Of a stretch of DNA of 32,000 nucleotides, positions 5,600-30,276 are shown piece by piece. A program made the translations under genes and the position numbers. The DNA is from Alkanindiges sp. WGS2144 (GTDB taxonomy: Bacteria; Pseudomonadota; Gammaproteobacteria; Pseudomonadales; Moraxellaceae). Each line of letters opens with the position of its first letter. Position 1 is the stretch's first letter. Where the stretch lies: assembly GCF_043950625.1 (NCBI RefSeq), contig NZ_CP171007.1; one strand, written 5' to 3'. Below the pieces are notes generated by a model. The model worked only from the letters and a program-made list of their open reading frames with translations. It was not told the origin of the DNA and searched no databases.

Positions 5600-6247
5600 A
5601 TGCCAATGTTAAAGCAAAAAACCTATATGAGTGAACAGGACTATCTGGAAGGCGAATTGCATTCAGACATCAAGCATGAATATATTGATGGTGAAGTCTA
5701 TGTCATGTCTGGTGCGCACGCCAACCATAATCGTATTGCTGGCAATGTATACCGCAAATTGGGTAATCACTTAGAAGGAAAACCCTGCCAGCCCTATAGC
5801 TCAGATATGAAGGTCAAAGTCGGCAGCAAATATTTTTATCCTGATGTCATGGTAGAGTGTCAGGAAGCGGATGGATATTTCACCGAGTCACCCATTTTAC
5901 TGGTAGAGGTCTTATCCAAATCCACACGCCGTCATGATAAAACCTTTAAACGTCTGGCCTATCTGCAAATTCCGACCCTACAGGAATATGTACTCATAGA
6001 GCAGGACTTTGTTGAAATTGAACTATGGCGACGTACAGCGCAATCCCACTGGCAACAGAACGTTTATTATCTGGGCGATGACATTTATTTTGCTTCAATA
6101 GACCTAAGCATTGCGGTTGCAGATATTTATGATCGGGTTAAAAATACCGACATGCAGGAATGGCTACAGAAAAAGGCCGACTCGCAAGCAACGCAACAGT
6201 CTGAGCAACAGACCGAAAAAAGCCAGGAAAAGCAGGAGCAAAATTAA
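5600..6247 (+). CDS. Uma2-family (DUF820) PD-(D/E)xK-like endonuclease with a Q/E/K-rich C-terminal tail
   Basis: EYIDGEVYVMSGA, HNRIAGNVY, YPDVMV and LLVEVLSKST form a motif series typical of the Uma2 family. AGGAG lies 8 nt upstream of the ATG. The last ~30 aa are low complexity (QATQQSEQQTEKSQEKQEQN). Confidence 0.8.
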   Translation: MPMLKQKTYMSEQDYLEGELHSDIKHEYIDGEVYVMSGAHANHNRIAGNVYRKLGNHLEGKPCQPYSSDMKVKVGSKYFYPDVMVECQEADGYFTESPILLVEVLSKSTRRHDKTFKRLAYLQIPTLQEYVLIEQDFVEIELWRRTAQSHWQQNVYYLGDDIYFASIDLSIAVADIYDRVKNTDMQEWLQKKADSQATQQSEQQTEKSQEKQEQN

Positions 6248-7622: not shown

Positions 7623-7768
7623 GTTAACTGGCCTGCAATGTATAACACAAAAAATTTTATTTAATAATATATTGAAACCTAAGCAGATGCCTAAAAAAGA
7701 TAAACATAAAAAGTTAGAGCAAATATTCTACCGTTCATCGGAACATCTCCATAATTTATTAAAGTTGC

Positions 7769-7797
7769 TTGCACAAAAAGAAAACACAGGGTAATTT
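7769..7797 (+). promoter_or_regulatory. Candidate sigma70 promoter for the fibre-like cluster: TTGCAC-N17-TAATTT
   Basis: -35 TTGCAC at 7769-7774, a 17-nt spacer, and -10 TAATTT at 7792-7797, inside the 282-bp AT-rich region between divergent pabB and the first paralog. This is a hexamer match only. Confidence 0.3.
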
Positions 7798-7846
7798 TAG
7801 CTGGCAGGATTAGCTACAAGAACACCATGTAGGGATGCATTAGCTA
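7797..7846. promoter_or_regulatory. Three copies of TTAGCT (two as ATTAGCTA) in the putative 5' leader of the cluster
   Basis: TTAGCT at 7797-7802, 7810-7815 and 7840-7845. ATTAGCTA at 7809-7816 and 7839-7846, i.e. 30 bp apart. Confidence 0.35.
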
Positions 7847-7904
7847 TAAATCGCCGTACAGGGTAGTAGCGACAAAACAAAACTTATACTCGTAGGAGAG
7901 TGCA

Positions 7905-8807
7905 ATGAAGCTTTTTACTAAACTGGCTTTAGTTTGTGCAATCGCTGTTAGCGGTAGTGCAATGGCTATGGAATCACTGGACGATACAGCACTGAGTTCT
8001 GCAACTGGTCAGGAAGGTATCACTGTAAATGTGTTTAGCGATGGTATTTCTATCGGAAAGCTATTAATTCATGACGAAGATGGCTTATCTACTCGTGAAA
8101 CCACCCCGGGCGGTCAGAACTTGGGCGGTACTGGTGAAACAGGTGCCATCGTGGTTAATGATATATCTTTGGCAGTCGATGAGGATAATGCAAATGGAGC
8201 GCTCCGAGGTGCTTTAGCAAATATCAACATTGACACTGATGGTAACGGCGGCGATGCTTTCCTGAACATAGGTATCAATACTAATGCTCTGGCTGTTGAA
8301 GTAGGTAGCATTGCAGTAGCAAAGTCAGCTGATACTGTAACTGGTGCACGTCGTGGTACAGTTACTGGTGTTGCTGCAGATGATGAAACTGAAATTCTGG
8401 GTGCTTTAAGTGTAAATATTGGTGCGACCAGCATGAACATTCAGTTGGGTGCTGATGCTCCCCAAGATGCTCTGATCTGGGCAAATGCTACTATCACCAA
8501 TGGTATCAAAATTTCCAATATCGACTTAAAAGATCATTCAGATATGGATGGTTCAATCACAGCACTAGGTGGCTCAGGTTCTATTGGAATCGATAATTTA
8601 TACATCACCACTGCTGGCAGTGAAGATTTAATTGTAAATACCAAGATTGGTGTATCTCAGAATGGCTTAGTAGTTAAGTCTTCTGGTTCACAGGATATTT
8701 ACATGGATGCTGTACGTCTGGGTAGTGCTTCTGCTGCCTCTATCGGTGCAGTTGAAATCCAGGGCTTGAACATGGGTGAATCCATGATCGTTGTATCTGG
8801 TCACTAA
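7905..8807 (+). CDS. filA: Secreted Gly/Asn/Asp/Thr-rich repeat protein, paralog 1 of 4 (FilA-like/DUF6160-like putative fibre subunit)
   Basis: 300 aa. AGGAG RBS. Signal peptide MKLFTKLALVCAIAVSGSAMA|ME. Mature N-terminus ESLDDTALSSATGQEGITV. Ends ...MIVVSGH. No Cys in the mature part. Codon usage is dominated by GGT/GCT/ACT. The symbol comes from my memory of the Acinetobacter fil locus annotation and is unverified. Confidence 0.75.
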   Translation: MKLFTKLALVCAIAVSGSAMAMESLDDTALSSATGQEGITVNVFSDGISIGKLLIHDEDGLSTRETTPGGQNLGGTGETGAIVVNDISLAVDEDNANGALRGALANINIDTDGNGGDAFLNIGINTNALAVEVGSIAVAKSADTVTGARRGTVTGVAADDETEILGALSVNIGATSMNIQLGADAPQDALIWANATITNGIKISNIDLKDHSDMDGSITALGGSGSIGIDNLYITTAGSEDLIVNTKIGVSQNGLVVKSSGSQDIYMDAVRLGSASAASIGAVEIQGLNMGESMIVVSGH

Positions 8808-8816
8808 GTAACGGAT

Positions 8817-8847
8817 GGCTGGTAACCTTAGGGTTGCCAGCCTTTTT
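8817..8847 (+). terminator. Rho-independent terminator/attenuator directly after paralog 1
   Basis: GGCTGGTAAC (8817-8826) pairs with GTTGCCAGCC (8833-8842): a 10-bp stem with one G-U pair and a 6-nt loop, followed by TTTTT at 8843-8847. Confidence 0.7.
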
Positions 8848-8897
8848 GACCTGCTATTTGTAATCAGTGTTATCTTCAAGGGACAAGGAAATATACT

Positions 8898-9749
8898 ATG
8901 AAAACTTTAACAAAAATTGCTTTGGTTTCAGCAATGGCAATTAGCAGCAGTGCTTTTGCGTTGGAATCACTTGATGATTCAGCACTGAGCGCAACTACTG
9001 GTCAGGATGGTATTACCATTAAACTGGATGCCCAACAAGACGGTACCATTTTTGGTGCAGACAACATTGTTGTGCATGACAAAGACGGTGTTGGTAATAA
9101 CAATGGTGTATCCAATACTGGCGCTGGTGCGATTGTTTTAGGTAAAGGTGCTGCGGGCATTCAAGGTTTTAATATTATGGGTACTGCTAGTGATGCAGTA
9201 ACTATTAAAGTGGATGCAGATTCTAACGGTACTGCTCCAGTGTTAAACGTAAATGTTGCGCTGCCAGATGAATTAGAAGTAAATACTGGTGATATCTACG
9301 TGGCTTCATCAGGTGGTATTGCTGCTGACGCAAATGCTCAATTTGCTAATGAATCCAAAATTCTGGATAACATCAACATTAGCCTGGGTGGTGCTGAGAT
9401 GAACATCCAGCTGGGTAACACTGCACAAGGTGCCATGATTGTACTGGACGGTAATGTGGACGGTGGTATCAATATTGCTGGTCTGGCATTGACTGATAAC
9501 TCTGCTGGTGCAGGTGGTAAAATCACGATTGATAACATTAACGTACGTGACGCTGGTGGAGCCAACTTGGGCTTAGCCACTGACATTAAAGTAACCAATG
9601 ATGGTTTGTCAGTAATCCGTACCGGTGGTGATGTTGACGTTCGCTTAAGTGGTGTTCAGTTAGGCTCTGTTGGCCTTGCCCATAACCTGGGTGACGTAGC
9701 TATTCTGGGTATGGCTGTACCTAATATTACCATTAGCGGCCATAACTAA
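8898..9749 (+). CDS. Secreted Gly/Asn/Asp/Thr-rich repeat protein, paralog 2 of 4 (FilA-like)
   Basis: 283 aa. Signal peptide ...SSSAFA|LE. Mature N-terminus LESLDDSALSATTGQDGITI. Contains DADSNG and EMNIQLGNTAQG blocks. Ends ...NITISGHN. Gly codons are dominated by GGT. Confidence 0.75.
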   Translation: MKTLTKIALVSAMAISSSAFALESLDDSALSATTGQDGITIKLDAQQDGTIFGADNIVVHDKDGVGNNNGVSNTGAGAIVLGKGAAGIQGFNIMGTASDAVTIKVDADSNGTAPVLNVNVALPDELEVNTGDIYVASSGGIAADANAQFANESKILDNINISLGGAEMNIQLGNTAQGAMIVLDGNVDGGINIAGLALTDNSAGAGGKITIDNINVRDAGGANLGLATDIKVTNDGLSVIRTGGDVDVRLSGVQLGSVGLAHNLGDVAILGMAVPNITISGHN

Positions 9750-9774
9750 TTATAGTGCCGTTTTCTGGGTAATA

Positions 9775-9805
9775 AACAAGGCGGCATACAATGTGCCGCC
9801 TTGTT
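9775..9805 (+). terminator. Perfect 12-bp hairpin after paralog 2 (terminator-like, lacks a clean U-tract)
   Basis: AACAAGGCGGCA (9775-9786) pairs with TGCCGCCTTGTT (9794-9805) around a 7-nt loop. It is followed by GTCACGG rather than a T-run. Confidence 0.45.
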
Positions 9806-9886
9806 GTCACGGGGTAGAGGAGGTTAATCATAGTCTTGGGCGGGAAGCCTAACTAACCAAACGCTAGAGGCTAGAGGGAACTGTAG

Positions 9887-10738
9887 ATGATGCCACTAAA
9901 AACTATAATCATGACTTCTTTGCTATTGGCAAATGGTTCAGTATTTGCCTTGCAAACACTGGATGATTCTTCCTTGAGTCAGGCAACCGGACAGGATGGC
10001 ATTACCGTAACCTTGCAGGATTTTGAGCCCAATGCGCAGATTATCTGGACAGATACCAATGGTATTAATAGTGCCGATGGTATAGACCCTGCTAGTGTTG
10101 GAATTATAACAACCACACCACAGCCTGGTGCAGTGGTATTTGGTGATGGAACAAGAGCAAATAACTTTAGAATTAGTAAAGGCACCACGACACTAACTCT
10201 GGATGCTGACGGCAATAATGGTTCCCCAATGCTGAATATTAATATCAGTCTGCCTGAGGATTTAACGGTGCAAACTGGGGATATTTTTGTAGCTGGCAAG
10301 GATAATAATAACCAGCTGGTAAATATGATCAAAATTATGAATGACGTTAAGGTGGAGCTTGGTGGCTTGGATCTTAATGTACAGTTGGGTAGTGCCCCAC
10401 AGGGGCAACTGTTGAAATTTTATGGAACAGTAGTAGGTGGTATCCGTATTTCTAACCTAGCGTTAATTTCGGAGTCTTCAGGTACTGAGCAATATGGCAT
10501 TGGCATTCAGAAGATAACGGTTCGGGATGCAGGTGCAAGCGGTGACTTAACCTTTAATGGTAGTGGTGTCAGCGTTGCCAACACAGGGTTGATTATTACA
10601 CCTTCTGCTGGTAAACAGGTAGATGTATTAATGGATGATGTAAAAGTAGGTAACCTGGCTAGCAGTGCATCAATTGGTGGGGTGGCTGTGCTTGGTATGC
10701 AGCTTGATGGTAATTCATTAACGATCTCTGGACACTAA
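9887..10738 (+). CDS. Secreted repeat protein, paralog 3 of 4 (FilA-like)
   Basis: 283 aa. Signal peptide ...NGSVFA|LQ. Mature N-terminus LQTLDDSSLSQATGQDGITV. Contains DADGNNG and DLNVQLGSAPQG blocks. Ends ...SLTISGH. The start could be the second ATG (9890). Confidence 0.72.
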   Translation: MMPLKTIIMTSLLLANGSVFALQTLDDSSLSQATGQDGITVTLQDFEPNAQIIWTDTNGINSADGIDPASVGIITTTPQPGAVVFGDGTRANNFRISKGTTTLTLDADGNNGSPMLNINISLPEDLTVQTGDIFVAGKDNNNQLVNMIKIMNDVKVELGGLDLNVQLGSAPQGQLLKFYGTVVGGIRISNLALISESSGTEQYGIGIQKITVRDAGASGDLTFNGSGVSVANTGLIITPSAGKQVDVLMDDVKVGNLASSASIGGVAVLGMQLDGNSLTISGH

Positions 10739-10820
10739 AGATAAAAGGTACGCCGCCATTACTTGCTACACTCTGAAGTGGCGCTGAGTTGAAGCACTAT
10801 TTGAAAGGCAGGAAGCTCTA

Positions 10821-11816
10821 ATGAAATGTACAACTGCAAAGCTGGCATATCTTGCAATATTAATACCATTGTCTTCTCACACATGGGCATTACAGGCTCT
10901 GGATGATCAATCTCTGGCCGCGCAAACAGGTCAGGATGGCATCAGTATGGCACTGGACTATCCTAACTCAACCATTAGTTTTAGTGAGGTGATATTAACC
11001 GATACTGATGGTATGCCAGATGCTACAAATGGCGCTTCACTGATTGTTGCTCCTGCAACATATAGCGACACCCAGGGCATTCGTATGTTTAAAAACAATA
11101 GCAATACTGCTATTGCCACCGCCCCTGTGCTCATCAAGATGGATGCGGACAGTAATAGTAATCAACCAGTATTTAATGCCAATATTTCCTTACCTACTGA
11201 TTTGGGACGTATGCGGATTAACCCGTTTTCAATTTATTTAACCGCTGGTTCAGATTCTATTTTCGAGCCTGGCACACGCATAAAAGATAGTACAGGCACT
11301 ATAAGAGCCACAGGCGTGACAGAGCTACTAAGAGTGAATACTGAAGGCATTGATGTGGTGTTTAAAGAAGGTGATCCCCTTAGTGTCAATGTACAGTTAG
11401 GAAATGCACCTCAGGGGCATATGCTCAAATTTACCGGTGGTAGTATTTTGTGTGTAGGTAACAATGCCTCATGCATGGCAACACAGGGTGAGGAAGGGAA
11501 AAATCCCATTGAGCTGATCTCTAAAAACAGTTCGGGTGAATCTAGCTTGAAACTTGGATTTACGCTTAAGGCGAGTGAACAGGATACCGGTTTCCGCCTG
11601 GCAGGTTTTTATGCAGGCTTTGATAATGACGGGCTGATATTTGGCAAAGAAGGTTCCACAGATAAGTTTGATTTTGTGTTAAATAATGTGGTTGCAGGCG
11701 AGGCAGGGGCACAAGCTCCAGAGACCTTTAATCATCTCAAAAATGGTTCAATGGGTAATTTTGGTTTAATAGGGGCTTCAGTCACTAATCTAAAAGTCAA
11801 TGTAAAGGGAATGTGA
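10821..11816 (+). CDS. Secreted repeat protein, divergent paralog 4 of 4 (FilA-like N-terminal two-thirds, unrelated C-terminal region)
   Basis: 331 aa. Signal peptide ...SSHTWA|LQ. Mature N-terminus LQALDDQSLAAQTGQDGISM. Contains DADSNSN and SVNVQLGNAPQG blocks. The C-terminal ~130 aa differ from paralogs 1-3, contain a CX6C pair, and end ...VNVKGM with no SGH terminus. Confidence 0.7.
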   Translation: MKCTTAKLAYLAILIPLSSHTWALQALDDQSLAAQTGQDGISMALDYPNSTISFSEVILTDTDGMPDATNGASLIVAPATYSDTQGIRMFKNNSNTAIATAPVLIKMDADSNSNQPVFNANISLPTDLGRMRINPFSIYLTAGSDSIFEPGTRIKDSTGTIRATGVTELLRVNTEGIDVVFKEGDPLSVNVQLGNAPQGHMLKFTGGSILCVGNNASCMATQGEEGKNPIELISKNSSGESSLKLGFTLKASEQDTGFRLAGFYAGFDNDGLIFGKEGSTDKFDFVLNNVVAGEAGAQAPETFNHLKNGSMGNFGLIGASVTNLKVNVKGM

Positions 11817-11825
11817 TTTGAGCGT

Positions 11826-11853
11826 GATTAATTTGCTAGTTGGCAAATTAATC
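11826..11853. repeat. Perfect 11-bp AT-rich inverted repeat between the subunit genes and the peptidase gene
   Basis: GATTAATTTGC (11826-11836) pairs with GCAAATTAATC (11843-11853) around a 6-nt loop. It is followed by CAAAAAAA, not a T-run. Confidence 0.5.
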
Positions 11854-11908
11854 CAAAAAAATTAGTGTAATTGTGAATAAAACACGGTATCTTGTAACCA
11901 CATGGACG

Positions 11909-11930
11909 GCGATTAGTAACTTCTAATCGC
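11909..11930. repeat. Perfect 8-bp inverted repeat (hairpin) upstream of the peptidase gene
   Basis: GCGATTAG (11909-11916) pairs with CTAATCGC (11923-11930) around a 6-nt loop. Confidence 0.45.
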
Positions 11931-11993
11931 ACCTTCAATAGGATATGGTGATGTTCTTTAACTGGATATCACCCACAATTAGAAAAACTTGCT

Positions 11994-12830
11994 ATGTTTA
12001 TCGTCACGCTAGGATCAGCCTTAATTTATCATTTTGCCACTGAAGCATTACAAGTGGCGGATAAACCTGCTGGCTCAGTGTATTACACTGAAGTGGCAGA
12101 TTCCCGTTATCCCTCATTTGGTAAGTACCACCGTGAACCTGTTCAGGTCAAGCCGGCTATCGAACAGCAGTTCCGCGGTATTGTCAAACAAGCTTATGAC
12201 TATAGCTGTGGTTCAGCAGCGCTAACTACTTTGCTTAATGGCTATGTGGGCGAAAAGCTAAATGAGCGTCAAACCATGGATGGATTGATGCGCTATGGTG
12301 AGTATGATCGCATTGTAGAGCGGCGCAGCTTTTCACTGTTAGATATGAAACGCTTTGTAACGGCGCTAGGATACAATAGTGGCGGCTATAAAGGTAAATT
12401 TGAGGATCTCATAGCTCTTGATAAACCAGCCATTGTGCCTATTGCCTATGCTGGTTTTAAGCATTTTGTCGTATATAAAGCCTATCGTAATGGTCGTGTG
12501 TTTGTCGCTGACCCGGCTTTGGGTAATTTAAGTTTTAGTGCCGATCATTTTCAGGAAATCTGGGACAATAATACGCTGTTCATCGTTGACCCTCCGGTGG
12601 GACGTGAATTACCTGGTTTGCTTGCCCTGCAAGAACAGGATATGCGTATTGTGGAGGATAGCGTAATTGATCGATTTGCTTTTGTAGATGTACGCTATCC
12701 TACGTTAATGATGGAAAAAAATGCTGACCGGGCTGCCACTATGCGCAGAGTGCTTGATGAAGATCCAAAATCAGCAACCTATCAGCAACCTATTGATGTC
12801 CCTCTACGCTTATATTATAAGCGTAAATAA
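11994..12830 (+). CDS. filB: Stand-alone C39-type (papain-fold) cysteine peptidase, predicted exported (FilB-like)
   Basis: 278 aa. QAYDYSCGSAALTTLLN carries the catalytic-type Cys72 (nt 12207-12209). GFKHFVVY carries His157 (12462-12464). VFVADPALG carries Asp173 (12510-12512). There is no ABC-transporter domain. The 5' end is problematic (see findings). Confidence 0.75.
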   Translation: MFIVTLGSALIYHFATEALQVADKPAGSVYYTEVADSRYPSFGKYHREPVQVKPAIEQQFRGIVKQAYDYSCGSAALTTLLNGYVGEKLNERQTMDGLMRYGEYDRIVERRSFSLLDMKRFVTALGYNSGGYKGKFEDLIALDKPAIVPIAYAGFKHFVVYKAYRNGRVFVADPALGNLSFSADHFQEIWDNNTLFIVDPPVGRELPGLLALQEQDMRIVEDSVIDRFAFVDVRYPTLMMEKNADRAATMRRVLDEDPKSATYQQPIDVPLRLYYKRK

Positions 12831-12877
12831 AATTAACGTATCGTTTTCAATTTAAAATAACTGTTTCAAGGTAGATT

Positions 12878-14179
12878 ATGGTCATGCAGAAACAATGGAT
12901 GAATCGCTCAATACTGGCCCTAAGTATTAGTTTGGCAATGATTGGGGCGAATGTGCATGCAGCAGATGCAGAGGATTCTCAGGTTAATGAGAGTGCGGAC
13001 AGTGAAATAACCACTACACAGGAACAAGAAGGTACCACTGATCCAGTAGCTGCAGAAAGCCGGGAACAGGTTGAAGCTCCCTTAACTCATGATAATAATC
13101 CTGATGAGGTAGAAAGCACGGTTGTCAATACCGTTGCTGAGCGCCCGGATGATACGCAAGAACCAGTTGCTACCGCGCAGAGCGCTGCCACGGCTTCTGG
13201 CTCAACAGCTGTTACTCCTTCTATGGCACCTAAAGACAGTGCTGCCAGTGTTCTGGAGCAAAAAGCGGATGATGCGTCTGCACAAAGCAACTTGGAAGAA
13301 GTATTTACGCGTTCTGAGCAGCAGTATTCCTTATCCAAGCGTGGTTCTTATTCTGCCTACTATGATGTTGACTATAGTTATTACCGTGATAGTCGTCTGG
13401 ATTTGGCATTAAGCGATAGTGGATCAGCACTCACCCGGTTACGTGTGGAAGAGGATGCACAGCACAGTATTACCAATACGTTTACCTTCCAGTATGGTCT
13501 GCTGGATAACGTGACATTAACAGCTTCCTTACCCTTGGTTGCCAAAAGCGATAATCTAAAAGACGCTACTACTGCCGGTCTAGGGGATATTAGCCTGGGA
13601 GCACGCTGGGAACCATTCCCCCTAAAACAGGGCCGCCTGCCGTTAATTTTATTTGGTAGCCTCTCTACTAAAACAGGTGATAGTCCCTACGAAATTGACC
13701 CGGTTCGTGGCTTATCGACAGGTAAAGGATATTATTCCATCGGCGGCGGTGCCAGTACCCGTAAGTTTATTGATCCTGTCGTATTGTTTGCCTCTGGTTC
13801 GGTTAGCTATGGTCTAAAAGAAACAGGTATTAATCAGGTGCGGGGTAATACCAACCGGATTCTGGAGTCTTTTGATCCTGGAATGAGCGGTGGTATTTCG
13901 TTTGGTTTTGCATACTCATTTAACTATGATGTGTCTTTAACCATGTCATACCAGCAAAGCTTCTCGACTGGCAGTGAGTTTAAATTTGACAATGGTGATG
14001 TTTCAAAGCCAGCTGATCAAACCAGTGCCTCACTTGGTTTTTCTCTAGGGGTGCGGGTAACACCCAAGACTATTGTTAATGGTTCAGTGGGCTTTGGCTT
14101 AACTGAAGATGCGCCAGATGTGTCTTTAGGTCTTTCTTTCCCGCTGGATTTCCTGGGTTTTGGCCGTGACAACCGCTGA
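12878..14179 (+). CDS. filC: Outer-membrane beta-barrel protein (MetA/phenol-degradation 'transporter'-type, GLGD motif) with a long acidic N-terminal extension (FilC-like)
   Basis: 433 aa. Signal peptide ...GANVHA|AD. About 120 aa of D/E/S/T/A/Q-rich low complexity follow. The remainder alternates amphipathic strands, including TTAGLGDISLGARWEP, which is typical of that barrel family. Confidence 0.6.
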   Translation: MVMQKQWMNRSILALSISLAMIGANVHAADAEDSQVNESADSEITTTQEQEGTTDPVAAESREQVEAPLTHDNNPDEVESTVVNTVAERPDDTQEPVATAQSAATASGSTAVTPSMAPKDSAASVLEQKADDASAQSNLEEVFTRSEQQYSLSKRGSYSAYYDVDYSYYRDSRLDLALSDSGSALTRLRVEEDAQHSITNTFTFQYGLLDNVTLTASLPLVAKSDNLKDATTAGLGDISLGARWEPFPLKQGRLPLILFGSLSTKTGDSPYEIDPVRGLSTGKGYYSIGGGASTRKFIDPVVLFASGSVSYGLKETGINQVRGNTNRILESFDPGMSGGISFGFAYSFNYDVSLTMSYQQSFSTGSEFKFDNGDVSKPADQTSASLGFSLGVRVTPKTIVNGSVGFGLTEDAPDVSLGLSFPLDFLGFGRDNR

Positions 14180-14190
14180 GGCACGCTAGT

Positions 14191-15855
14191 ATGAAAATAA
14201 ATTTGCGCTTGCGGCCTTTAAGTTGTGCCATATTGCTGTCCAGCGTTTCGGCTTTATCTCATGCACAGCTAGGGCAAAACCTGTCTATTGATATTCGTGC
14301 TTTATCCATGGGGAATGCGGTTACTGCAGACCCGCCGGGAATCAGTGCGATTCATTTTAACCCGGCAGGTTTAACCAAAATACAGGGTTTACAAACTGAT
14401 GTTCAGGGCTTGCTGGTAGACTTTAACATTCGCCGAGAATTTGAAGCACCGCCAGGCTATAACGTATTTGGTTATTCAGATGATCCTCTTATTTGTAATG
14501 AAATGGAGATGGGTCAAAAATTATGTGGGGAATTTAAGGATTACGCGGTTAGTAAGGTTGATCATCCCAGTCTTTATGTCCCTGTTCTAAAGAAAATTGT
14601 TAACTGGCCACAAGGCTTACCATTAGCCGCCCCTTTGGCGGGGGCCGCCTATAATCCTCCAGGCTCAAAAATTACATATGCTTCGGGTTTATATGCGCCG
14701 TTAGTTGCAGGCTTTGGTTCGGCAGATGGTGATCCTGGTAACTACATGGGTCAGCAAGTAGCCATTGAGCGGATCACTTATTTATCCCCCTCAGCAGCCT
14801 ATAAGGTTAATGATCACTTATCGTTGGGTGCTTCGGTAGGTATGTCTTATCAGGCCATTGGCTTAAAGACAGATTTACGTTTTCCCAATGAATTGATTGG
14901 CGTACTACGCTTAATTGATGAAGATGTCTGTGGCCCATTTAAAGAAAATGGTAATATTGTTGGTAACCTATTATTATTTGGTATTTGTAATGCTGAGGAG
15001 AGTATAGGGCCGTTTAAAAAGCTAGCTGCCATGGACGTGGCGCTGGAGCAAAGCTTATCTCCTACGTATAACCTGGGTTTGCTCTGGGAACCTAATGATG
15101 ATTTTGGCTTTGGTATGGTTTATCAAAGCTCTAGCAAAATGAAGCTTAAGGGCAAGTATGCTATTGATAATGGCAGAGGTGCGCAGGAGCTGATTCGTGC
15201 TTTGGGTTCGTCAGCTACAGGTGTAATTTTACAGGCTATTTTAGGCTTCCCATCTTATATACCTCCTACAGAAAGTGGCATTGTATCCATGGACTTGGAG
15301 TATCCAGCGCATTTTCAGGCAGGGATTAAATATAAGGTAATGCCGGACTTACAGTTTAATTTTGATATCGGCTGGACGGATTATGCTGCCTGGGATTCCT
15401 TCAAATTTAATTTTGACCGCCAGGTATCTGCTTTAAAAATTGCACGACTTTTAACTAACGGCGCTACCCCAACAAGTCTGGAACTTCCTTTAGGATTTCG
15501 CAGCCCCTGGAGCTGGGGGGTAGGCATGGAGTATAGTGCGACTGATCGTTTAAAGCTGCGGTTAGGTTATGAACCTCGAAAGAGTGCTATTCCCGACGAT
15601 CGACGTAATACGCTGGTGCCAATTAATAATGCACAAATGTTTGGTGCCGGTATTGGTTATCAATTCGATCCGGATACCACAATTGACCTAACAGCGATGC
15701 ATTTACGTAGTCGTGATAATATTCCTGCAAATACAAGTGGGCTAGCCAACAAAACCGGGGTGAATAATTTATTGTTAAACCCATATGCAGGCTTGGACAT
15801 TAAAACCAACACAAAAGTTACCATTTTAGGTATAGCATATCGCACGGTTTGGTAA
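14191..15855 (+). CDS. filD: FadL/TodX (OMPP1) family outer-membrane transport protein (FilD-like)
   Basis: 554 aa. Signal peptide ...ALSHA|QL. LSMGNAVTADPPGISAIHFNPAGL is the N-terminal hallmark of the FadL family. The C-terminal beta-signal is ...LGIAYRTVW. It starts 11 nt after filC. Confidence 0.75.
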   Translation: MKINLRLRPLSCAILLSSVSALSHAQLGQNLSIDIRALSMGNAVTADPPGISAIHFNPAGLTKIQGLQTDVQGLLVDFNIRREFEAPPGYNVFGYSDDPLICNEMEMGQKLCGEFKDYAVSKVDHPSLYVPVLKKIVNWPQGLPLAAPLAGAAYNPPGSKITYASGLYAPLVAGFGSADGDPGNYMGQQVAIERITYLSPSAAYKVNDHLSLGASVGMSYQAIGLKTDLRFPNELIGVLRLIDEDVCGPFKENGNIVGNLLLFGICNAEESIGPFKKLAAMDVALEQSLSPTYNLGLLWEPNDDFGFGMVYQSSSKMKLKGKYAIDNGRGAQELIRALGSSATGVILQAILGFPSYIPPTESGIVSMDLEYPAHFQAGIKYKVMPDLQFNFDIGWTDYAAWDSFKFNFDRQVSALKIARLLTNGATPTSLELPLGFRSPWSWGVGMEYSATDRLKLRLGYEPRKSAIPDDRRNTLVPINNAQMFGAGIGYQFDPDTTIDLTAMHLRSRDNIPANTSGLANKTGVNNLLLNPYAGLDIKTNTKVTILGIAYRTVW

Positions 15856-15867
15856 CTGGTACTCATC

Positions 15868-17091
15868 ATGCCTATAAATATCTGGAAATTTATCGCGATC
15901 AGTGGATTAGGCCTGCTTTGTATAAACCCGGTTGCTCATGCAGAGCGCTCCGGGTTTTATACAATTATTGGCCCGGATGGGCGTATCATGGTAGTTGATC
16001 GCAATGCTCCAAGCGACCGTGAAACCAGGACGAAAGTAGCTACTAAGCAACCTAAAACTGCTCATAAGACAGCGACATCTTCAAAGTGGTCTTTATTTAG
16101 TGGCAAGACTAAAAGTAAGATAGTGAACTCACCACAGCAGCCTACCTCGGCTGTTAATTCTACTCTACCAGCAGGTAAAACTACCCCCTCAGCTACAACT
16201 CACGATTCTGCCCCAACTTCAGTAAGTCATTCTGTTGAGCAGCGGGTGTTTGTCCAGCAGCCAGAAATGCAATCGATAAGTAAAACAGAAGCCGCTATAA
16301 AAACAAATTCAGTAAAAGCAGAAAATAGTGAAAATCCTATAAAAAATAAGGCCATTCCGGCTTCCAGCCCTACTGTACAACCATCAATAGGAGAAGAATC
16401 GCCGTCCGTTGATAGCCAGCCAGTTAAAACCATTGATGGCGAGCAGTATGTCGATAGCGAATACTTAGAGGCGCATGAGTTTAATTTAGAAGGAAAAAAA
16501 AGATTTTATAACCTGCCTGATGGTTTGGGAGGCACGCAGGTGCTCCAGCGTGAAAAGGGCGTCGATATGAGTTTCTTTCGACGTTTTAAAGCCGAGCAAC
16601 CGCAGCAGCAGGTTGTTAACCTGGCAAAGAACTATCAGCGTCTTAGCCAGAATGAGGTAACAGCACTTACTGGAGTACAATGCTTTAGTGAAAAGCAATT
16701 GAAAAAAGCCAAGCTGCTCCGTAAAGATGAAAGCCTGAGTTTATGGCCCAAGCCTGGGTTTGAGCCAAAATTTGATTTTGTAGTCGCACGGCTATCTGAA
16801 CAAATTAATGATATCCAATTTAATTCATATGCTGATAAGATCAGTAATCCTGAATTTTACTGGCCTTTACCTATATTTCTGGATGATAAAGGCTGCGTAA
16901 TAGAGGGGGTCAATGCGTTTTATCAGCAGACCATTTCCCCTACGGTGACTACTCGCCAGGCACTGCAAGGCTATATGCATATTCCGACAGGTACGAGCTA
17001 TGTATTGCTAACTCCACTTGAGGCAGCAGTTGACCTTGAACATATTCAGTTAACGGACAAAGGACAGGTTCGTTTAACACCGGTTCGTTAA
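15868..17091 (+). CDS. filE: Exported protein of unknown function with an S/T/P/Q/K-rich linker (FilE-like)
   Basis: 407 aa. Signal peptide ...INPVAHA|ER. A low-complexity region of ~140 aa (nt ~16009-16437) follows, then a ~215-aa C-terminal domain. It starts 12 nt after filD. The symbol comes from the remembered fil locus order. Confidence 0.55.
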   Translation: MPINIWKFIAISGLGLLCINPVAHAERSGFYTIIGPDGRIMVVDRNAPSDRETRTKVATKQPKTAHKTATSSKWSLFSGKTKSKIVNSPQQPTSAVNSTLPAGKTTPSATTHDSAPTSVSHSVEQRVFVQQPEMQSISKTEAAIKTNSVKAENSENPIKNKAIPASSPTVQPSIGEESPSVDSQPVKTIDGEQYVDSEYLEAHEFNLEGKKRFYNLPDGLGGTQVLQREKGVDMSFFRRFKAEQPQQQVVNLAKNYQRLSQNEVTALTGVQCFSEKQLKKAKLLRKDESLSLWPKPGFEPKFDFVVARLSEQINDIQFNSYADKISNPEFYWPLPIFLDDKGCVIEGVNAFYQQTISPTVTTRQALQGYMHIPTGTSYVLLTPLEAAVDLEHIQLTDKGQVRLTPVR

Positions 17092-17119
17092 GTAATATCA
17101 TTAATTGGAAGTTTGAATA

Positions 17120-19102
17120 ATGAACAGATTTTACAAAAACTCAAAGAGCCCGTTTGCATTAACAACCTTATGCTTGTTACTCAGTGCTTGTGGCGGTGAA
17201 AGCAATACATTTAATGAAGGCTCTGGCTCAACAGGTGGTGGTCAAGGCAATGGCAGTATGACGCTACTATGCCCCAGCGATGATTTAAGTTGTGTAGATG
17301 TGGTATTTGATGATACGCCAGTGGTGAACTTGAATTACGAATGCGGCAAGTATAATGGGGTAACCGATGCAACAGGCACTGCACGCTGTCCTATTGACTC
17401 TAATGTCAAATTTTATCTTAAGGCAGCTAATGGCGTACGCCGGGTTAACCTAGGTACTTTTTCTATCAAATCAGTGCGGAATAATGACCCGTCTGAAGCG
17501 CAGGATACCTCACTAATTCGTATAGGCGTTAAAGAACTGGCCGAAAATACGACAGGTGCTTCCATTAATAATCTTGATGATAGTGCAACAGCAACGGCAG
17601 CCATTAATATTAGTCGGCTTTTACAGTCCTTGCGGCGCAAATCAGAGCCCTATGTAGAGACAGCACCAGTCAATCGTGTCTATATTGATAATGCCGTTAA
17701 AGCTGATATTGAAAAAATAAGCCAGAACGTAGAGCCTAAGGATTTCCTGGATGATACTTTTGAGGAAAAGCTGGCACCCTGGTTAGAAGCGCAAAAAAGA
17801 ACCTTGCTTGATGAAGGTGTTGCAAAGGCCAGACTGGAGAAAACCATACTTGCCACTAAGTCGGGTATATTCTTCTCTACTCCCACAGCTACGCTGGATT
17901 GGGGTATGCAGATTGGTAGCCTAAATCTGGATTTAGGCATTTCTGGTTCAAATGCCAATAATCAGCGTGCCAGTGTGGCTGTATATATGCTCACAGACCG
18001 CACAGGGCAAACCACGGGCTATGGGATGCAATGGACTGGGCAGACGACTACTGCTCAAGATGCATATAAGCTATTTTTAACCAGCAATTTTGCCAAAATG
18101 CGTATCAATAATGCATCCGGTAGCATTGATCCTTACACTGATCGTTTTAATAAACTGGGTTTCAAAGTTGGGCCCAAAACTTACGAAGCGAACGATGCCA
18201 ATCAGTATAGTGGAGATACCTTTAGTTTTAATAATGGTAAGTTAATTCGGGACTTGGCTGTTTTTGGTTCTGCCGATGTATATGAGTTTTTTACTCGCGT
18301 GAAAATAGCAGACCAAACTGAGCTTGGTACCTGGGAGCAAAAAACACCAACAGGAAGCACCAGTTTTACCGGAAACGCAACGGTATTTAAAACTGGCGCG
18401 ATAAATAGCTACTTTGATCCGGCGGTATGGCGTACCAAAGATAGTATCACTGCAGGCAACTACATATTCCCTTTGTATGCTACTTTTACATTCAGCTACG
18501 ATGACGCTTATTTGGAGGAGTGCAAGAAGCAAGCCCTTACTTGTGCTAAATCAGATCAGTTACCTGTGGTCTTCCTGGAAAATGGTGACATTATGACCGA
18601 TGGCGATAATGCAGATCTATTAGTGAACTCAAAAGCAGTATGTGGGCAGGGTAATATTCCACAAACTCGTATTGGTACTGTGCGTGCTGCTTATACCAGC
18701 ACAGATGGCAATCAGGCTTATATTAATCCCAGTGTGATTTTATCCGGTGATCAGTTTGGTGCACTGGATGGTATACAAATAGGCACTTCTGCGTTGGCGC
18801 CCCGGGTCAAAATTAATATTGCTGGTATTAAACAGGCTGCAACCGGTCAGCAAGGTAGCATTAACGTGACCAGTGCTGAGGGCGGCGACACTGCTTCAGG
18901 TAACGCGCCAGGAGTTTGGGTGAATGGATTTAATAGCTTTACAGGCTTTCGTGTAGCACAAAAAGAGGCAGAAGATGCGGCAGAAGAGAAGCCTGAAAAA
19001 CCGTCACCAGCCATTACCAAAGCGCAAAAACTTGCCTCTGAACAGGTGGCAGGTAATCTTGCGGCAAGTGTTTCTTCTTGTTATACAGTAAAACAGAAGT
19101 AA
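17120..19102 (+). CDS. filF: Large lipoprotein of unknown function (FilF-like)
   Basis: 660 aa. Lipobox LLLSAC|GGES with Gly at +2, which predicts outer-membrane sorting. There are four Cys within the first ~70 mature residues and a K/E/A/P-rich C-terminal tail. The size and position match my memory of Acinetobacter FilF. Confidence 0.6.
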   Translation: MNRFYKNSKSPFALTTLCLLLSACGGESNTFNEGSGSTGGGQGNGSMTLLCPSDDLSCVDVVFDDTPVVNLNYECGKYNGVTDATGTARCPIDSNVKFYLKAANGVRRVNLGTFSIKSVRNNDPSEAQDTSLIRIGVKELAENTTGASINNLDDSATATAAINISRLLQSLRRKSEPYVETAPVNRVYIDNAVKADIEKISQNVEPKDFLDDTFEEKLAPWLEAQKRTLLDEGVAKARLEKTILATKSGIFFSTPTATLDWGMQIGSLNLDLGISGSNANNQRASVAVYMLTDRTGQTTGYGMQWTGQTTTAQDAYKLFLTSNFAKMRINNASGSIDPYTDRFNKLGFKVGPKTYEANDANQYSGDTFSFNNGKLIRDLAVFGSADVYEFFTRVKIADQTELGTWEQKTPTGSTSFTGNATVFKTGAINSYFDPAVWRTKDSITAGNYIFPLYATFTFSYDDAYLEECKKQALTCAKSDQLPVVFLENGDIMTDGDNADLLVNSKAVCGQGNIPQTRIGTVRAAYTSTDGNQAYINPSVILSGDQFGALDGIQIGTSALAPRVKINIAGIKQAATGQQGSINVTSAEGGDTASGNAPGVWVNGFNSFTGFRVAQKEAEDAAEEKPEKPSPAITKAQKLASEQVAGNLAASVSSCYTVKQK

Positions 19103-19122
19103 GAGTAGATAGATAATTTAAG

Positions 19123-19150
19123 AAGGGCTTTTCAAAAAAGCCCTTTTTCT
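19123..19150. terminator. Rho-independent terminator closing the cluster, shared with the convergent NUDIX gene
   Basis: AAGGGCTTTT (19123-19132) pairs with AAAAGCCCTT (19136-19145) around a 3-nt loop. The T-run at 19144-19148 overlaps the last two bases of the 3' stem arm. It lies between the stops at 19102 (+) and 19174 (-). Confidence 0.8.
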
Positions 19151-29817: not shown

Positions 29818-30276
29818 CTAGTCTAGCAGCTCTACCGTCCAGTTCAATGATTGAATTTTAGTATCTAGCTCACGGTATGCCTTGGCCAAATCATCCACTT
29901 TTTTTTGCAAAGTCTTAATATCCACCGTGCTTTTAAATTTGATTTCTGAGCGGCTGTAGCGATCTTGTGTTGCTGAAGCAGCATTCACCAGTTCATCGTA
30001 CACCTTGCGCCGTGTAGCAAGTACATCGCGTTCGGCCAGTGCATCGGTCAGGGTTTTTTGTGGGTCAAATGCAGTGATGGTGTTGGTTTTATTAATGCGC
30101 TTAATTAAATCCATGAGCCCATCAGCCACCCGCTCAAATTCTTTCAGCAGTGCCTGAGGATCTTCGGCTGGTTGTTCGCCTTCTTGTACTTTGGCATTAT
30201 TGCTCAGGCGCTGGCGCAGTTGACTAATACGCGTCATATAATCGGCGCGTAAAATTAATGCTTCGGCAAGTTTCAT
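29818..30276 (-). CDS. DIP1984-family (septicolysin-like) coiled-coil protein
   Basis: 152 aa. The N-terminus MKLAEALILRADYMTRISQLRQRL and the overall helical heptad character match my memory of the DIP1984 family. Confidence 0.6.
   Translation of the reverse strand: MKLAEALILRADYMTRISQLRQRLSNNAKVQEGEQPAEDPQALLKEFERVADGLMDLIKRINKTNTITAFDPQKTLTDALAERDVLATRRKVYDELVNAASATQDRYSRSEIKFKSTVDIKTLQKKVDDLAKAYRELDTKIQSLNWTVELLD

Follow-up and report, generated by a model that had tools for sequence, protein, structure and literature searches.

What do nine consecutive genes for four paralogous exported proteins, a peptidase, two outer-membrane barrels, a further exported protein and a lipoprotein build in Alkanindiges sp. 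WGS2144, and did this system arise independently of known export routes? Judged by sequence, the locus is filA(×4)-filBCDEF, a new member of a gene cluster that is already named. FilA1 shows 100% identity to a protein of this organism. All nine products are matched by the NCBIfam FilA-F models, in agreement with the fil identity proposed in the initial annotation; chance is excluded for the family matches, because E-values are as low as 0 (FilD) and 1e-184 (FilC). The initial annotation took the name to rest on annotation alone. This is not the case: FilA was identified by Edman degradation in Acinetobacter sp. Tol 5 cells with long curved fibres (PMC3498257), and A. baumannii pellicles are rich in the Fil proteins A1S_0690-0695 (PMC3203104, PMC4256060, PMC5376624). 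The assignment of FilA to the Tol 5 fibre was "deduced" (PMC3498257), and this published support, FilA in Tol 5 and pellicle proteomics, is only indirect evidence for Fil fibres. Structure and literature searches found neither a solved structure nor a mechanistic paper for the fil system. The reading that we favor, with a probability of roughly 60%, is that fil directs Sec-dependent, ATP-independent export and assembly of a beta-rich surface fibre (Fil fimbriae) by a core homologous to that of Fap.

Organization of the locus

The nine open reading frames lie on the plus strand at positions 7905-19102 of the window, that is, of the whole 32,000-nt stretch analyzed, and are separated by 90, 137, 82, 177, 47, 11, 12, and 28 bp; the coordinates and the 11-177 bp range of gaps given initially are exact. 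Upstream, a 282-bp AT-rich non-coding region (7623-7904), presumably a promoter or regulatory region, separates filA1 from the divergent pabB gene on the minus strand. Its GC content is 34.4%, compared to 45.9% for the window; no Rfam element was found in it, and a consensus promoter scan gave sites not above the chance number. At the 3' end, a NUDIX gene is convergent with filF, and both share an intrinsic terminator (about 19120-19150) with a 13-bp stem (AAGAAGGGCUUUU/AAAAGCCCUUUUU), U runs, a folding energy of -21.4 kcal/mol and a z-score of -3.6, as strong as had been proposed. The gene order and neighborhood given initially proved correct. However, direct adjacency to hisGDC did not, because an Uma2 gene and pabB (minus strand) intervene.

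The families expected from the initial annotation were all recovered by profile searches: DUF6160, Peptidase_C39, Phenol_MetA_deg, Toluene_X/FadL, FilE_C, and a lipoprotein with the lipobox LLSAC followed by GG. Similarly, the stated lack of components of known pilus pathways was upheld, as none of the nine products matches the ATPase, chaperone, usher, prepilin, prepilin peptidase, secretin, sortase, or CsgG/E/F families in Pfam and NCBIfam. This already contradicts the idea that the parts were misread and in fact form a chaperone-usher, type IV, curli, or type V pilus system of the classical kind, an explanation suggested by the label "putative type III pili" in the A. baumannii literature (PMC4256060, PMC5376624). 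Since FilA also carries Sec-type signal peptides with A-x-A sites and neither a prepilin nor a lipoprotein leader, we consider it exceedingly improbable.

FilA subunits and their arrangement

Four paralogs of the DUF6160 family open the cluster: filA1 (7905-8807, 300 aa; pilus_FilA 272.7 bits), filA2 (8898-9749, 283 aa; 256.7 bits), filA3 (9887-10738, 283 aa; 219.8 bits, just below the model cut-off of 220 bits), and filA4 (10821-11816, 331 aa, three cysteines; 94.8 bits, DUF6160 30.4 bits), which is the most divergent and retains the N-terminal motif. As proposed, they are paralogous Sec-exported proteins, alignable end to end with 27-40% identity and each carrying a Sec-type signal peptide with an A-x-A cleavage site. 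The N-terminus of the mature proteins carries a near-invariant motif, (M/L)DDxxLSxxTGQ(D/E)G(I/L). Among 106 Moraxellaceae subunits, 84 have this motif unchanged and 68 end in SGH. Distant subunits of 146-474 aa retain both ends around a variable middle. The AF2 model of FilA1 is all-beta at moderate confidence (pLDDT 78, pTM 0.66) and matched neither any solved structure nor a pilin. FilA is not Q/N-rich, and no internal repeat, solenoid period, or amyloid-type imperfect repeat was detected in it.

The set of four subunits, initially regarded as an expansion in this locus, is not unique: the same classes in identical order are found in other Alkanindiges, A. sedimenti, and A. marinus. The filA2 gene represents an orthologous class with a conserved position in loci L001-L003, L010, and L074, filA3 is also an orthologous class, and in multi-copy loci (2-4 copies) filA4 always closes the series of subunit genes, ahead of filB. 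Identity to the nearest relative is 57% for FilA1 and 87-94% for FilA2-A4. A terminator-like hairpin on the plus strand directly follows filA1 (8817-8842; an 11-bp stem with seven G-C pairs, then TTTTT) and also appears as the centroid fold computed for the intergenic RNA. If pilus operons are a guide, it is possibly an attenuator raising the ratio of subunits to machinery. Based on the divergence patterns and this hairpin, FilA1 is probably the major, surface-exposed fibre subunit, abundant and antigenically variable, and FilA2-A4 would be conserved minor subunits, with filA4 a candidate for a specialised one. Another strong plus-strand hairpin follows filA2 (9775-9805; a 14-bp stem in the fold of 9747-9886) and has no clean U run. 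The 177-bp gap between the subunit and machinery genes (11817-11993, plus strand, 34.5% GC) contains two strong hairpins (MFE -43.1 kcal/mol, z-score -4.55; none of 200 shuffled sequences folds as well); candidates for its role are a terminator, a processing site, and a second promoter.

These subunits could alternatively leave the cell through FilC and form no pilus-like polymer, acting as surface-attached adhesins or as a loose matrix or coat held at the outer membrane by FilD or FilF; in that case, the "Fil fimbriae" observed by microscopy would be something else. Such an explanation agrees with the purely correlative fibre assignment in Tol 5 and the migration of FilA as a monomer on SDS-PAGE (PMC3498257), with subunit lengths unusual for a regular helical polymer, and with the lack of an internal period or of structural similarity to any pilin. 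However, strongly conserved ends around a variable center fit head-to-tail contacts, the paralogs fall into several ordered classes, of which one is hypervariable, much as in major and minor pilin sets, and pellicle proteomics in A. baumannii found Fil proteins alongside other pili (PMC3203104). We regard the non-polymeric alternative as unlikely.

FilB and FilC are homologs of FapD and FapF

The filB gene (11994-12830) encodes a stand-alone C39 cysteine peptidase of 278 aa (pilus_FilB 511 bits, cut-off 475), whose N-terminus includes a hydrophobic segment and whose C-terminal tail, YY(K/R)R(K/N), is conserved. The catalytic Cys, His, and Asp are intact, as noted initially, and so is the Gln; in 98 family members Q66, C72, and H157 never vary and D173 hardly does. 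FilB scores 105.5 bits (E 2e-30) with the C39_FapD model and at most 33 bits with models of ABC-fused C39 domains, and the FilB and FapD models both match all 98 sampled stand-alone family members.

The product of filC (12878-14179, 433 aa; pilus_FilC 613.9 bits, FapF model 56.7 bits, Pfam Phenol_MetA_deg) consists of a signal peptide, an acidic low-complexity linker, a conserved pre-barrel helix, and an outer-membrane barrel. The conserved segment upstream of the barrel reads LEEVFxxxEQQYSLxKRG, and in FilC from outside Moraxellaceae only about 25 residues precede the conserved helix. FapF is the sole solved relative of FilC (E 8e-10 with a single sequence, 6e-22 with a profile); the match covers about 200 barrel residues including both xTG motifs, with the plug region outside it.

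Thus, the initial impression that no protein in the locus looks like a Fap ortholog was wrong for FilB and FilC, and the proposed independence from Fap has to be abandoned: as these two are detectable homologs of FapD and FapF, Fil is not an independent invention, and the logic common to both systems stems from the shared ancestry of their export cores rather than from convergence. Could this then be a Fap functional-amyloid operon in the strict sense that merely goes by a different name, with FilA equivalent to FapB/FapC and forming an SDS-insoluble amyloid? The two homologies and the gene order (subunits, then peptidase, then barrel) are what such an operon would show. However, the scores are far below the equivalog cut-offs (105 vs. 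330 bits for FapD, 57 vs. 700 bits for FapF), and for FilA, FilE, and FilF, searches up to an E-value of 10 returned no Fap model. FilA is not Q/N-rich, has no imperfect repeats, and is a monomer on SDS-PAGE (PMC3498257), the FapF coiled coil is missing, and a FadL-type barrel is present with no FapA/FapE counterpart found. This makes a true Fap operon very unlikely.

FilD, FilE, FilF, and the possibility of uptake

The filD gene (14191-15855, 554 aa) encodes an outer-membrane barrel of the FadL/TodX family (pilus_FilD 1029 bits, Toluene_X E 2e-63) with an N-terminal hatch carrying the HFNPAGL (NPA) motif and the C-terminal YRTVW; weak matches are to PorV/PorQ (E 2e-8) and FadL (E 3e-8). The exported 407-aa product of filE (15868-17091; pilus_FilE 377.8 bits, FilE_C E 3e-62) has a DUF4124-like hairpin motif at its N-terminus and an S/T/P/Q-rich linker in addition to the FilE_C domain. 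In six loci from outside Moraxellaceae, the place of filE is taken by the gene for a DUF4124/MalM-like protein, whose MalM-like domain aligns with FilE_C (hhalign E 0.0018, 128 columns). The outer-membrane lipoprotein encoded by filF (17120-19102, 660 aa; pilus_FilF 371.7 bits, cut-off 390) has conserved cysteines C51, C58, C75, and C90 and a confident AF2 model (pLDDT 82.8, pTM 0.82), which no solved structure matched (best E 0.023, TM at most 0.13).

Another explanation is a device mainly for capture or uptake of hydrophobic substrates. FilC (COG4313/MetA-type) and FilD (FadL-type) would import lipids or hydrocarbons, and secreted or surface DUF6160 proteins would bind, wick, or emulsify them, any fibre being secondary. 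FilD belongs fully to the FadL/TodX family and carries the NPA hatch motif, FilC scores above the Phenol_MetA_deg cut-off, both families are known importers of hydrophobic molecules, and the structure closest to FapF is a COG4313 importer (PMC5557850). Tol 5 grown on triacylglycerol shows Fil fibres and FilA (PMC3498257), many hosts are oil or lipid degraders (Alkanindiges, Acinetobacter, Oleispira, Thalassolituus, Marinobacter), and Oleispira, Thalassolituus, and Bacterioplanoides have an alpha/beta-hydrolase gene directly 3' of the cluster. On the other hand, FilC is nearer in sequence to the exporter FapF than to the solved COG4313 importers, none of which it matched at E-values up to 1, and a periplasmic C39 peptidase with Sec-exported subunits bearing conserved ends would be pointless if the locus served import alone. 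Phylogeny (a single order) and not ecology may underlie the host range, and a search for a connection with Pra, the alkane "protein activator", found none. We regard uptake as the main function as unlikely.

Distribution and conservation

The gene neighborhood is co-conserved, the order hisC-pabB-filA(n)-filBCDEF-nudix-nudix being kept in 80 Moraxellaceae loci. Identity across this family is 54-94% for FilB, FilC, and FilD (65-94% for FilD) and 24-71% for the fast-diverging FilA, FilE, and FilF. Outside Moraxellaceae, five of six loci, from Metapseudomonas, Oleispira, Thalassolituus, and Bacterioplanoides, contain a five-gene core in the order DUF6160 subunit, C39 peptidase, FilC/FapF-like barrel, FadL-like barrel, and DUF4124/MalM-like protein. 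The Marinobacter locus has only the last four core genes, with no subunit gene within 20 kb. Core proteins from these lineages are 50-53% (FilB), 43-48% (FilC), and 37-43% (FilD) identical to those of the Alkanindiges locus. The core loci are syntenic next to pabB, which suggests vertical descent. The filF gene is missing from all six and is found in Moraxellaceae loci only.

Proposed mechanism and comparison with Fap

In the favored model of fibre export, FilA1-4 cross the inner membrane via Sec and are cleaved by signal peptidase at A-x-A, as read from their sequences. In the periplasm, the N-terminal motif would be recognized by FilB, the transporter, or both, and proteolysis by FilB may license export, as for FapD in the Fap system, where secretion of FapC through FapF requires the FapD cysteine (PMC5557850). 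Unfolded subunits would then pass through FilC, a barrel homologous to FapF with a presumed FapF-like plug and trimeric state. Outside the cell, FilA would fold into its all-beta form and polymerize via the conserved ends, with folding as the likely driving force. FilD (FadL-type) and FilE (MalM/DUF4124-like) are conserved core partners that may provide a platform for anchoring or collecting, or may connect the system to hydrophobic substrates, and FilF is an outer-membrane lipoprotein limited to Moraxellaceae loci.

Several observations weigh against this model: the importer families of FilC and FilD, the indirect nature of all FilA-fibre experiments, the absence of a canonical double-glycine leader from every Fil protein, the missing FapF-type coiled coil in FilC, the restriction of the FapF match to the barrel, the subunit-less Marinobacter locus, and the moderate FilA model.

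In terms of sequence relationships, Fil has diverged within the type of outer-membrane export represented by Fap, which depends on Sec and needs no ATP. FilB and FilC are distant relatives of FapD and FapF. The N-terminal coiled coil that all FapF homologs are said to possess (PMC6173795) is missing from FilC. The subunits differ, as those of Fil are all-beta DUF6160 proteins with invariant terminal motifs and without amyloid repeats. Fap-model matches in the locus are limited to FapD and FapF, so that FapA and FapE have no counterpart found, and Fil has a FadL-type barrel instead. The link to Fap renders the Fil mechanism testable.

Structure and identity of the fil locus

The nine plus-strand ORFs at 7905-19102, found by an ORF check exactly where the initial annotation had placed them, constitute a fil locus, an already named kind of locus with curated annotation models. 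Subunit genes of the DUF6160/FilA type, filA1 (7905-8807) to filA4, occupy its 5' end. A search with Pfam and NCBIfam profiles returned every family match that had been predicted. All four FilA paralogs pass the Pfam DUF6160 model, and on the NCBIfam pilus_FilA model (cut-off 220 bits) FilA1, FilA2, FilA3, and FilA4 score 272.7, 256.7, 219.8, and 94.8 bits, respectively. Full-length alignments above the cut-off were obtained for FilB (11994-12830; pilus_FilB, 511 bits, cut-off 475; also Peptidase_C39), FilD (14191-15855; pilus_FilD, 1029 bits, cut-off 970; also Toluene_X), and FilE (15868-17091; pilus_FilE, 378 bits, cut-off 100; also FilE_C). FilC (12878-14179) and FilF (17120-19102) also align over the full length and fall just under their cut-offs (pilus_FilC, 613.9 vs. 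630 bits; pilus_FilF, 371.7 vs. 390 bits); by position, both are clearly orthologous across 80 loci. FilA1 and FilF are each 100% identical to a protein of Alkanindiges sp. WGS2144, which puts the window on a Moraxellaceae chromosome. Chaperone, usher, secretin, ATPase, prepilin leader, CsgG, and ABC/MFP components are absent among the nine products, as the initial annotation had it. Chaperone-usher, type IV, curli, and type V pili, as well as T1SS and T2SS, were each considered and rejected, having zero signature components in this set.

The ORFs are separated, in order, by 90, 137, 82, 177, 47, 11, 12, and 28 bp. The locus is preceded by a 282-bp AT-rich non-coding region (7623-7904; 34.4% GC vs. 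45.9% in the window) and closed by a strong terminator at approximately 19120-19150, a hairpin with a 13-bp stem followed by a U run (-21.4 kcal/mol, z -3.6). It is flanked on one side by murA, hisG, hisD, hisC, a Uma2-family gene, and pabB (minus strand), and on the other side by two NUDIX genes and then a gamma-carbonic-anhydrase-like gene. Thus, the reported position beside hisGDC holds as a nearby location but not as direct adjacency, the Uma2-family gene and pabB lying between. This putative endonuclease gene (5600-6247, between hisC and pabB) is absent from most Acinetobacter fil loci and has the opposite orientation in the Alkanindiges-like loci L003 and L005.

Three sets of strong hairpins lie inside the locus: a terminator-like one directly 3' of filA1 (8817-8842), a strong one with a 14-bp stem after filA2 (9775-9805), and two strong hairpins in the 177-bp gap between filA4 and filB (11817-11993), whose predicted fold is much more stable than those of shuffled sequence (z -4.55). 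Hence, the nine genes may not form one uniform transcript, and the machinery genes could be under transcriptional control of their own. No riboswitch or other known RNA was found upstream of or between the fil genes, where only sub-threshold Rfam matches on the hairpins were observed, and a promoter scan of the locus yielded no more sites than expected by chance. The GC skew is positive, 0.11-0.18 over most of filA1-filB and about 0.05 in filC. Minus-strand ORFs of 83-117 aa occur inside filA1-filA3 and filC (8114-8440, 9338-9598, 9979-10332, and 13087-13338); these are probably by-products of biased composition rather than real genes. Downstream of bioC/bioD, the window also encodes a 469-aa Peptidase_C13 (legumain-like) protein (26421-27830) and, on the minus strand, a DUF6847 protein (29818-30276), neither of which is related to the fil locus.

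Published evidence for a surface fiber made of FilA is indirect; its sources are Acinetobacter sp. Tol 5 and pellicles of A. baumannii (PMC3498257, PMC3203104). Edman degradation identified FilA in Tol 5, where it ran as a monomer band on SDS-PAGE (PMC3498257), and cells grown on triacylglycerol bore long curved fibers that were taken, by deduction, for Fil fimbriae (PMC3498257; PMC11784438). The A. baumannii genes A1S_0690-0695 are described as 'putative type III pili', and their products are highly expressed and abundant in pellicles (PMC3203104, PMC4256060, PMC5376624, PMC7273844). FilF is in use as a vaccine antigen (PMC11834437). Our literature search returned no report on the structure or mechanism of Fil and no paper connecting Fil with Fap, C39, or FadL.

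Co-conservation and the five-gene core

A scan using one genome per species returned 80 fil loci, all from Moraxellaceae (Acinetobacter, Alkanindiges, Aquirhabdus, and metagenome-assembled genomes). The proposed conservation of gene order and neighborhood is borne out by every sufficiently long locus, which reads hisC, pabB, filA(n), filBCDEF, and two nudix genes. Across these loci the machinery proteins are 62-90% (FilB), 54-83% (FilC), and 65-94% (FilD) identical to those of the window; FilA, FilE, and FilF diverge fast (24-71%).

Six loci beyond Moraxellaceae were reached with a profile of FilB-like peptidases: L081 from Metapseudomonas otitidis, L084, a Metapseudomonas-type locus from a metagenome bin whose source label is Stenotrophomonas maltophilia, and one locus each from Marinobacter, Oleispira, Thalassolituus, and Bacterioplanoides. 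The gene order in five of these is DUF6160 gene, C39 peptidase, FilC-like barrel, FadL barrel, and a DUF4124/MalM-like gene. Identity to the window proteins is 50-53% for FilB, 43-48% for FilC, and 37-43% for FilD. The product of the fifth gene, which takes the filE position, has a short YxTWxDxxG hairpin motif, as does FilE, and its C-terminal domain weakly matches FilE_C (hhalign E 0.0018 over 128 columns). FilE matches MalM-like proteins weakly, by profile comparison only, with nothing obtained by BLASTP. FilF is absent from all six loci. From the order and gene content across loci we therefore distinguish a conserved unit A-B-C-D-E, with FilF found in addition only in the Moraxellaceae loci.

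The exception is the 20.8-kb Marinobacter locus (L082), which keeps the C39, FilC-like, FadL, and MalM-like genes and has no DUF6160 subunit gene within 10 kb on either side; here the subunit is encoded elsewhere or the substrate is different. Upstream of the cluster, five of the six loci have a divergently oriented pabB-like gene, which is the immediate neighbor in Oleispira, Thalassolituus, and Bacterioplanoides; the Marinobacter locus showed none. In the Metapseudomonas-type loci, two large genes for MalT-type LuxR-family regulators (AAA_16, TPR_MalT, GerE; L081:3823-9230 and L084:838-6256) are located directly upstream of the DUF6160 gene, between the cluster and the pabB-like gene; such regulators are absent from the fil loci of Moraxellaceae.

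In three marine genera, the FilE-like gene is followed on the same strand by an alpha/beta-hydrolase gene (Abhydrolase_1/6): L083:14614-15531 in Oleispira, L085:11576-12319 in Thalassolituus, and L086:11578-12456 in Bacterioplanoides, with the two genes overlapping in two of the three. The hydrolase may be a partner of the cluster with a lipid-related role.

Export core shared with Fap

The initial annotation had seen no Fap-like protein in the locus and regarded the system as a candidate for one independent of Fap, the Pseudomonas functional-amyloid system with FapB/FapC subunits, the C39 peptidase FapD, and the transporter FapF. This view has to be abandoned, as profile scores make FilB and FilC homologous to FapD and FapF, respectively.

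FilB matches Peptidase C39 (Pfam PF03412) with E 3e-15. On the NCBI FapD model it scores 105.5 bits (E 2e-30), below the equivalog cut-off of 330, and on models of ABC-fused C39 domains at most 33 bits. With an E-value limit of 1e-10, a scan of 1.84 billion cluster representatives yielded 873 FilB relatives. The FilB and FapD models both match each of the 98 members sampled, which puts FilB in the same stand-alone C39 subfamily as FapD. In the 98 relatives the catalytic residues Gln66, Cys72, and His157 are invariant, and Asp173 is nearly so. None of the Fil proteins has a canonical double-glycine leader; in the FilA N-terminus, LDDxxLSxxTGQ(D/E)G, no GG, GA, or GS stands at a position with the expected hydrophobic spacing. 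FilB and its orthologs in L081-L083 share a hydrophobic N-terminus without positive residues (M-x-I/L-I/V-L-x-G-S...) and a conserved basic-aromatic C-terminal tail, YY(K/R)R(K/N), both of which are atypical for known C39 domains.

The sole solved relative of FilC is FapF, matched with E 8e-10 by the single sequence and with E 6e-22 by a profile of 33 sequences. The profile match covers about 200 residues and includes two xTG motifs, which mark the beta5-beta6 loop in FapF (PMC5557850). FilC scores 56.7 bits on the FapF model, short of the equivalog cut-off of 700, and passes Pfam Phenol_MetA_deg (PF13557; 31.1 bits, cut-off 22). The closest structural neighbor of FapF is a COG4313 importer channel (PMC5557850), and at E up to 1 FilC matches none of the solved COG4313 importers and channels, whereas it does match FapF. 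Just before the barrel FilC carries a strongly conserved segment, LEEVFxxxEQQYSLxKRG, which by its position may be the equivalent of the FapF plug helix. The pre-barrel region also contains an acidic low-complexity linker of variable length, almost absent in the non-Moraxellaceae orthologs. Judged from its sequence, FilC lacks the N-terminal periplasmic coiled coil described for FapF homologs (PMC6173795).

The remaining proteins are unlike Fap: even with E allowed up to 10, no Fap model is matched by FilA, FilE, or FilF, and FapA and FapE have no match among the fil products. Thus, the export core is common by descent, and the substrates and accessory proteins differ. As the scores are far below the equivalog cut-offs, Fil and Fap are paralogous systems rather than orthologs. 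For the same reason, and because its subunits lack amyloid repeats, Fil is unlikely to be a true Fap amyloid despite the common core; the appearance of FilA as a monomer on SDS-PAGE in Tol 5 (PMC3498257) also speaks against an amyloid, although not decisively.

The FilA subunits

The four FilA paralogs of the window are 27-40% identical in pairwise comparison. A near-invariant motif, (M/L)DDxxLSxxTGQ(D/E)G(I/L), immediately follows the signal-peptide cleavage site; it is unchanged in 84 of the 106 Moraxellaceae subunits, and the C-terminal ending SGH is found in 68. Both ends are also kept in the distant subunits, which range from 146 to 474 aa, and the middle is variable. Such a layout suggests a modular beta core capped by conserved ends. 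AF2 modeled FilA1 as an all-beta protein (pLDDT 78, pTM 0.66) in which the strands are long and the N-terminal motif contains a short helix. This model has no significant structural match in PDB or BFVD; the family profile found zero matches among PDB sequences. In the FilA composition G, A, I, S, L, and D predominate, and neither the paralogs nor the distant subunits have a solenoid or internal period (no lag above z of about 3).

The four-paralog form is common to other sequenced genomes: orthologs of all four classes occur, with their order unchanged, in other Alkanindiges, A. sedimenti, and A. marinus. Compared with the nearest relative (locus L001), FilA2-FilA4 are 87-94% and FilB is 90% identical. 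FilA1 is only 57% identical to its ortholog (L001:5887-6795), with differences concentrated in the center and conserved ends, which looks like diversifying selection or allele replacement of a major subunit. Taken together with the hairpins, this divergence pattern suggests that FilA1 is an abundant, variable major subunit and that FilA2-FilA4 are minor ones.

An identification of short Pseudomonas DUF6160 proteins as PraA/PraB was considered and found no support: these proteins have only a weak match to NCBIfam FilA, their source name is 'DUF6160 family protein', and tblastn against plasmids returned nothing. PraA/PraB are known as an alkane 'protein activator', and their genes adjoin an OmpP1/FadL gene (PMC4542665, PMC5410065).

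FilD, FilE, and FilF

FilD aligns with Toluene_X over profile positions 5-419 of 421 (E 2e-63) and has the NPA hatch motif, HFNPAGL, within its N-terminal 60 residues; it is a complete FadL/TodX barrel. A weak match to the PorV/PorQ family was also observed. PorV of type IX secretion is a FadL-fold shuttle for secreted proteins, and the match only recalls, by analogy, that FadL-fold proteins can handle secreted proteins.

The FilE and FilF profiles gave zero matches among PDB sequences. The FilF model (m637568e1ac00), built from an alignment of 36 sequences, is confident (pLDDT 82.8, pTM 0.82), contains conserved cysteines, and has no structural match. Weak local resemblances (E 0.02-0.6) to small eight-stranded barrels, such as avidin and retinol-binding protein, and to lipid-binding MucB were noted for FilF, and may hint at a ligand-binding barrel domain.

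The main alternative to an export system is a function centered on hydrophobic substrates. It is favored by the presence of both FadL-type and COG4313-type barrels, by induction on triacylglycerol, by the oil-degrading hosts, and by the neighboring hydrolase gene in the three marine genera. Such a function need not exclude export of the subunits.

Proposed mechanism and significance

The best-supported model for Fil is an export route of the Fap type. The subunits would cross the inner membrane by Sec; FilB would then perform a periplasmic proteolytic step, by analogy with FapD, whose cysteine is needed for FapC secretion (PMC5557850). Unfolded subunits would pass through FilC and then fold and polymerize outside the cell without ATP. 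Family membership, the homology of FilB and FilC to FapD and FapF, co-conservation, and the conserved ends of the subunits are shown by the present data; we infer the substrate of FilB, the plug and the oligomeric state of FilC, polymerization by the end caps, and what FilD, FilE, and FilF do.

In its fullest form, this export model would make the Fil/DUF6160 clusters a widespread, hitherto unrecognized sister branch of Fap across Pseudomonadales, in which beta-rich, modular subunits of a new, non-amyloid fold are exported by a peptidase related to FapD and a barrel related to FapF; the subunits would polymerize through their end caps, and at interfaces with oil, lipid, or air the fiber together with the always-linked FilD would serve to reach hydrophobic substrates or take them up. 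We give this complete reading roughly one chance in five.

Three points appear new when set against the papers searched: (i) the homology of the Fil and Fap cores, (ii) the five-gene core across Pseudomonadales, and (iii) predicted folds of FilA and FilF that have no match. With these, the mechanism can be tested directly. Given the kinship of FilB and FilC with FapD and FapF, the experiments established for Fap (catalytic-cysteine mutant, plug mutants, and E. coli secretion assays) are directly applicable. Nearly all Acinetobacter species examined carry the fil operon, the pathogen A. baumannii among them. The Fap-type 'hybrid' secretion would be extended beyond amyloids to a second class of substrates with an unmatched predicted fold, and the constant FadL-type partner, together with the oil- and lipid-degrading hosts, suggests a testable link between surface fibers and the use of hydrophobic substrates.

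Comparison with known systems

Among the systems with similar single components, the C39 domains of PCAT-type ABC exporters (e.g., PDB 4RY2, 7N87) have the papain-like fold and the catalytic Gln/Cys/His/Asp of FilB, but FilB has no ABC fusion and carries an N-terminal hydrophobic segment for export. To the FadL/TodX channels for hydrophobic compounds, Fil is related by FilD, a full-length Toluene_X member with the NPA hatch. With type IX secretion, the likeness of FilD to PorV is an analogy only, as the fil locus contains zero type IX components.

The closest system is filABCDEF of Acinetobacter (A. baumannii A1S_0690-0695, A. baylyi, and Tol 5), which shares with the window all six families, their order, and the hisC-pabB...nudix neighborhood. 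Identity is 62-70% for FilB, 54-75% for FilC, and 65-72% for FilD, and only 24-44% for FilA, FilE, and FilF in most Acinetobacter species. The window differs in having four ordered FilA classes, whereas most Acinetobacter species have one, and a longer acidic linker in FilC. The five-gene clusters of Metapseudomonas, Oleispira, Thalassolituus, and Bacterioplanoides have the A-B-C-D-E order of fil and subunits (146-474 aa) with N- and C-terminal motifs common with FilA. They differ from fil in a FilC without the long linker, in the lack of FilF, and in the E protein, where a recognizable MalM domain or repeated DUF4124 motifs replace FilE_C.

Fap (FapF, PDB 5O65, 5O67, 5O68) resembles Fil in the stand-alone periplasmic C39 peptidase and in the barrel, which in both systems belongs to the FapF/COG4313 lineage and carries paired xTG motifs. 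In both systems the subunits are Sec-exported, their genes come first, and no ATPase is present. However, the Fil subunits have no relationship to FapB/FapC: they are not Q/N-rich and lack amyloid repeats. Beyond the Fap components, Fil has a barrel of the FadL type, a protein resembling MalM/DUF4124, and, in Moraxellaceae, also a large lipoprotein.
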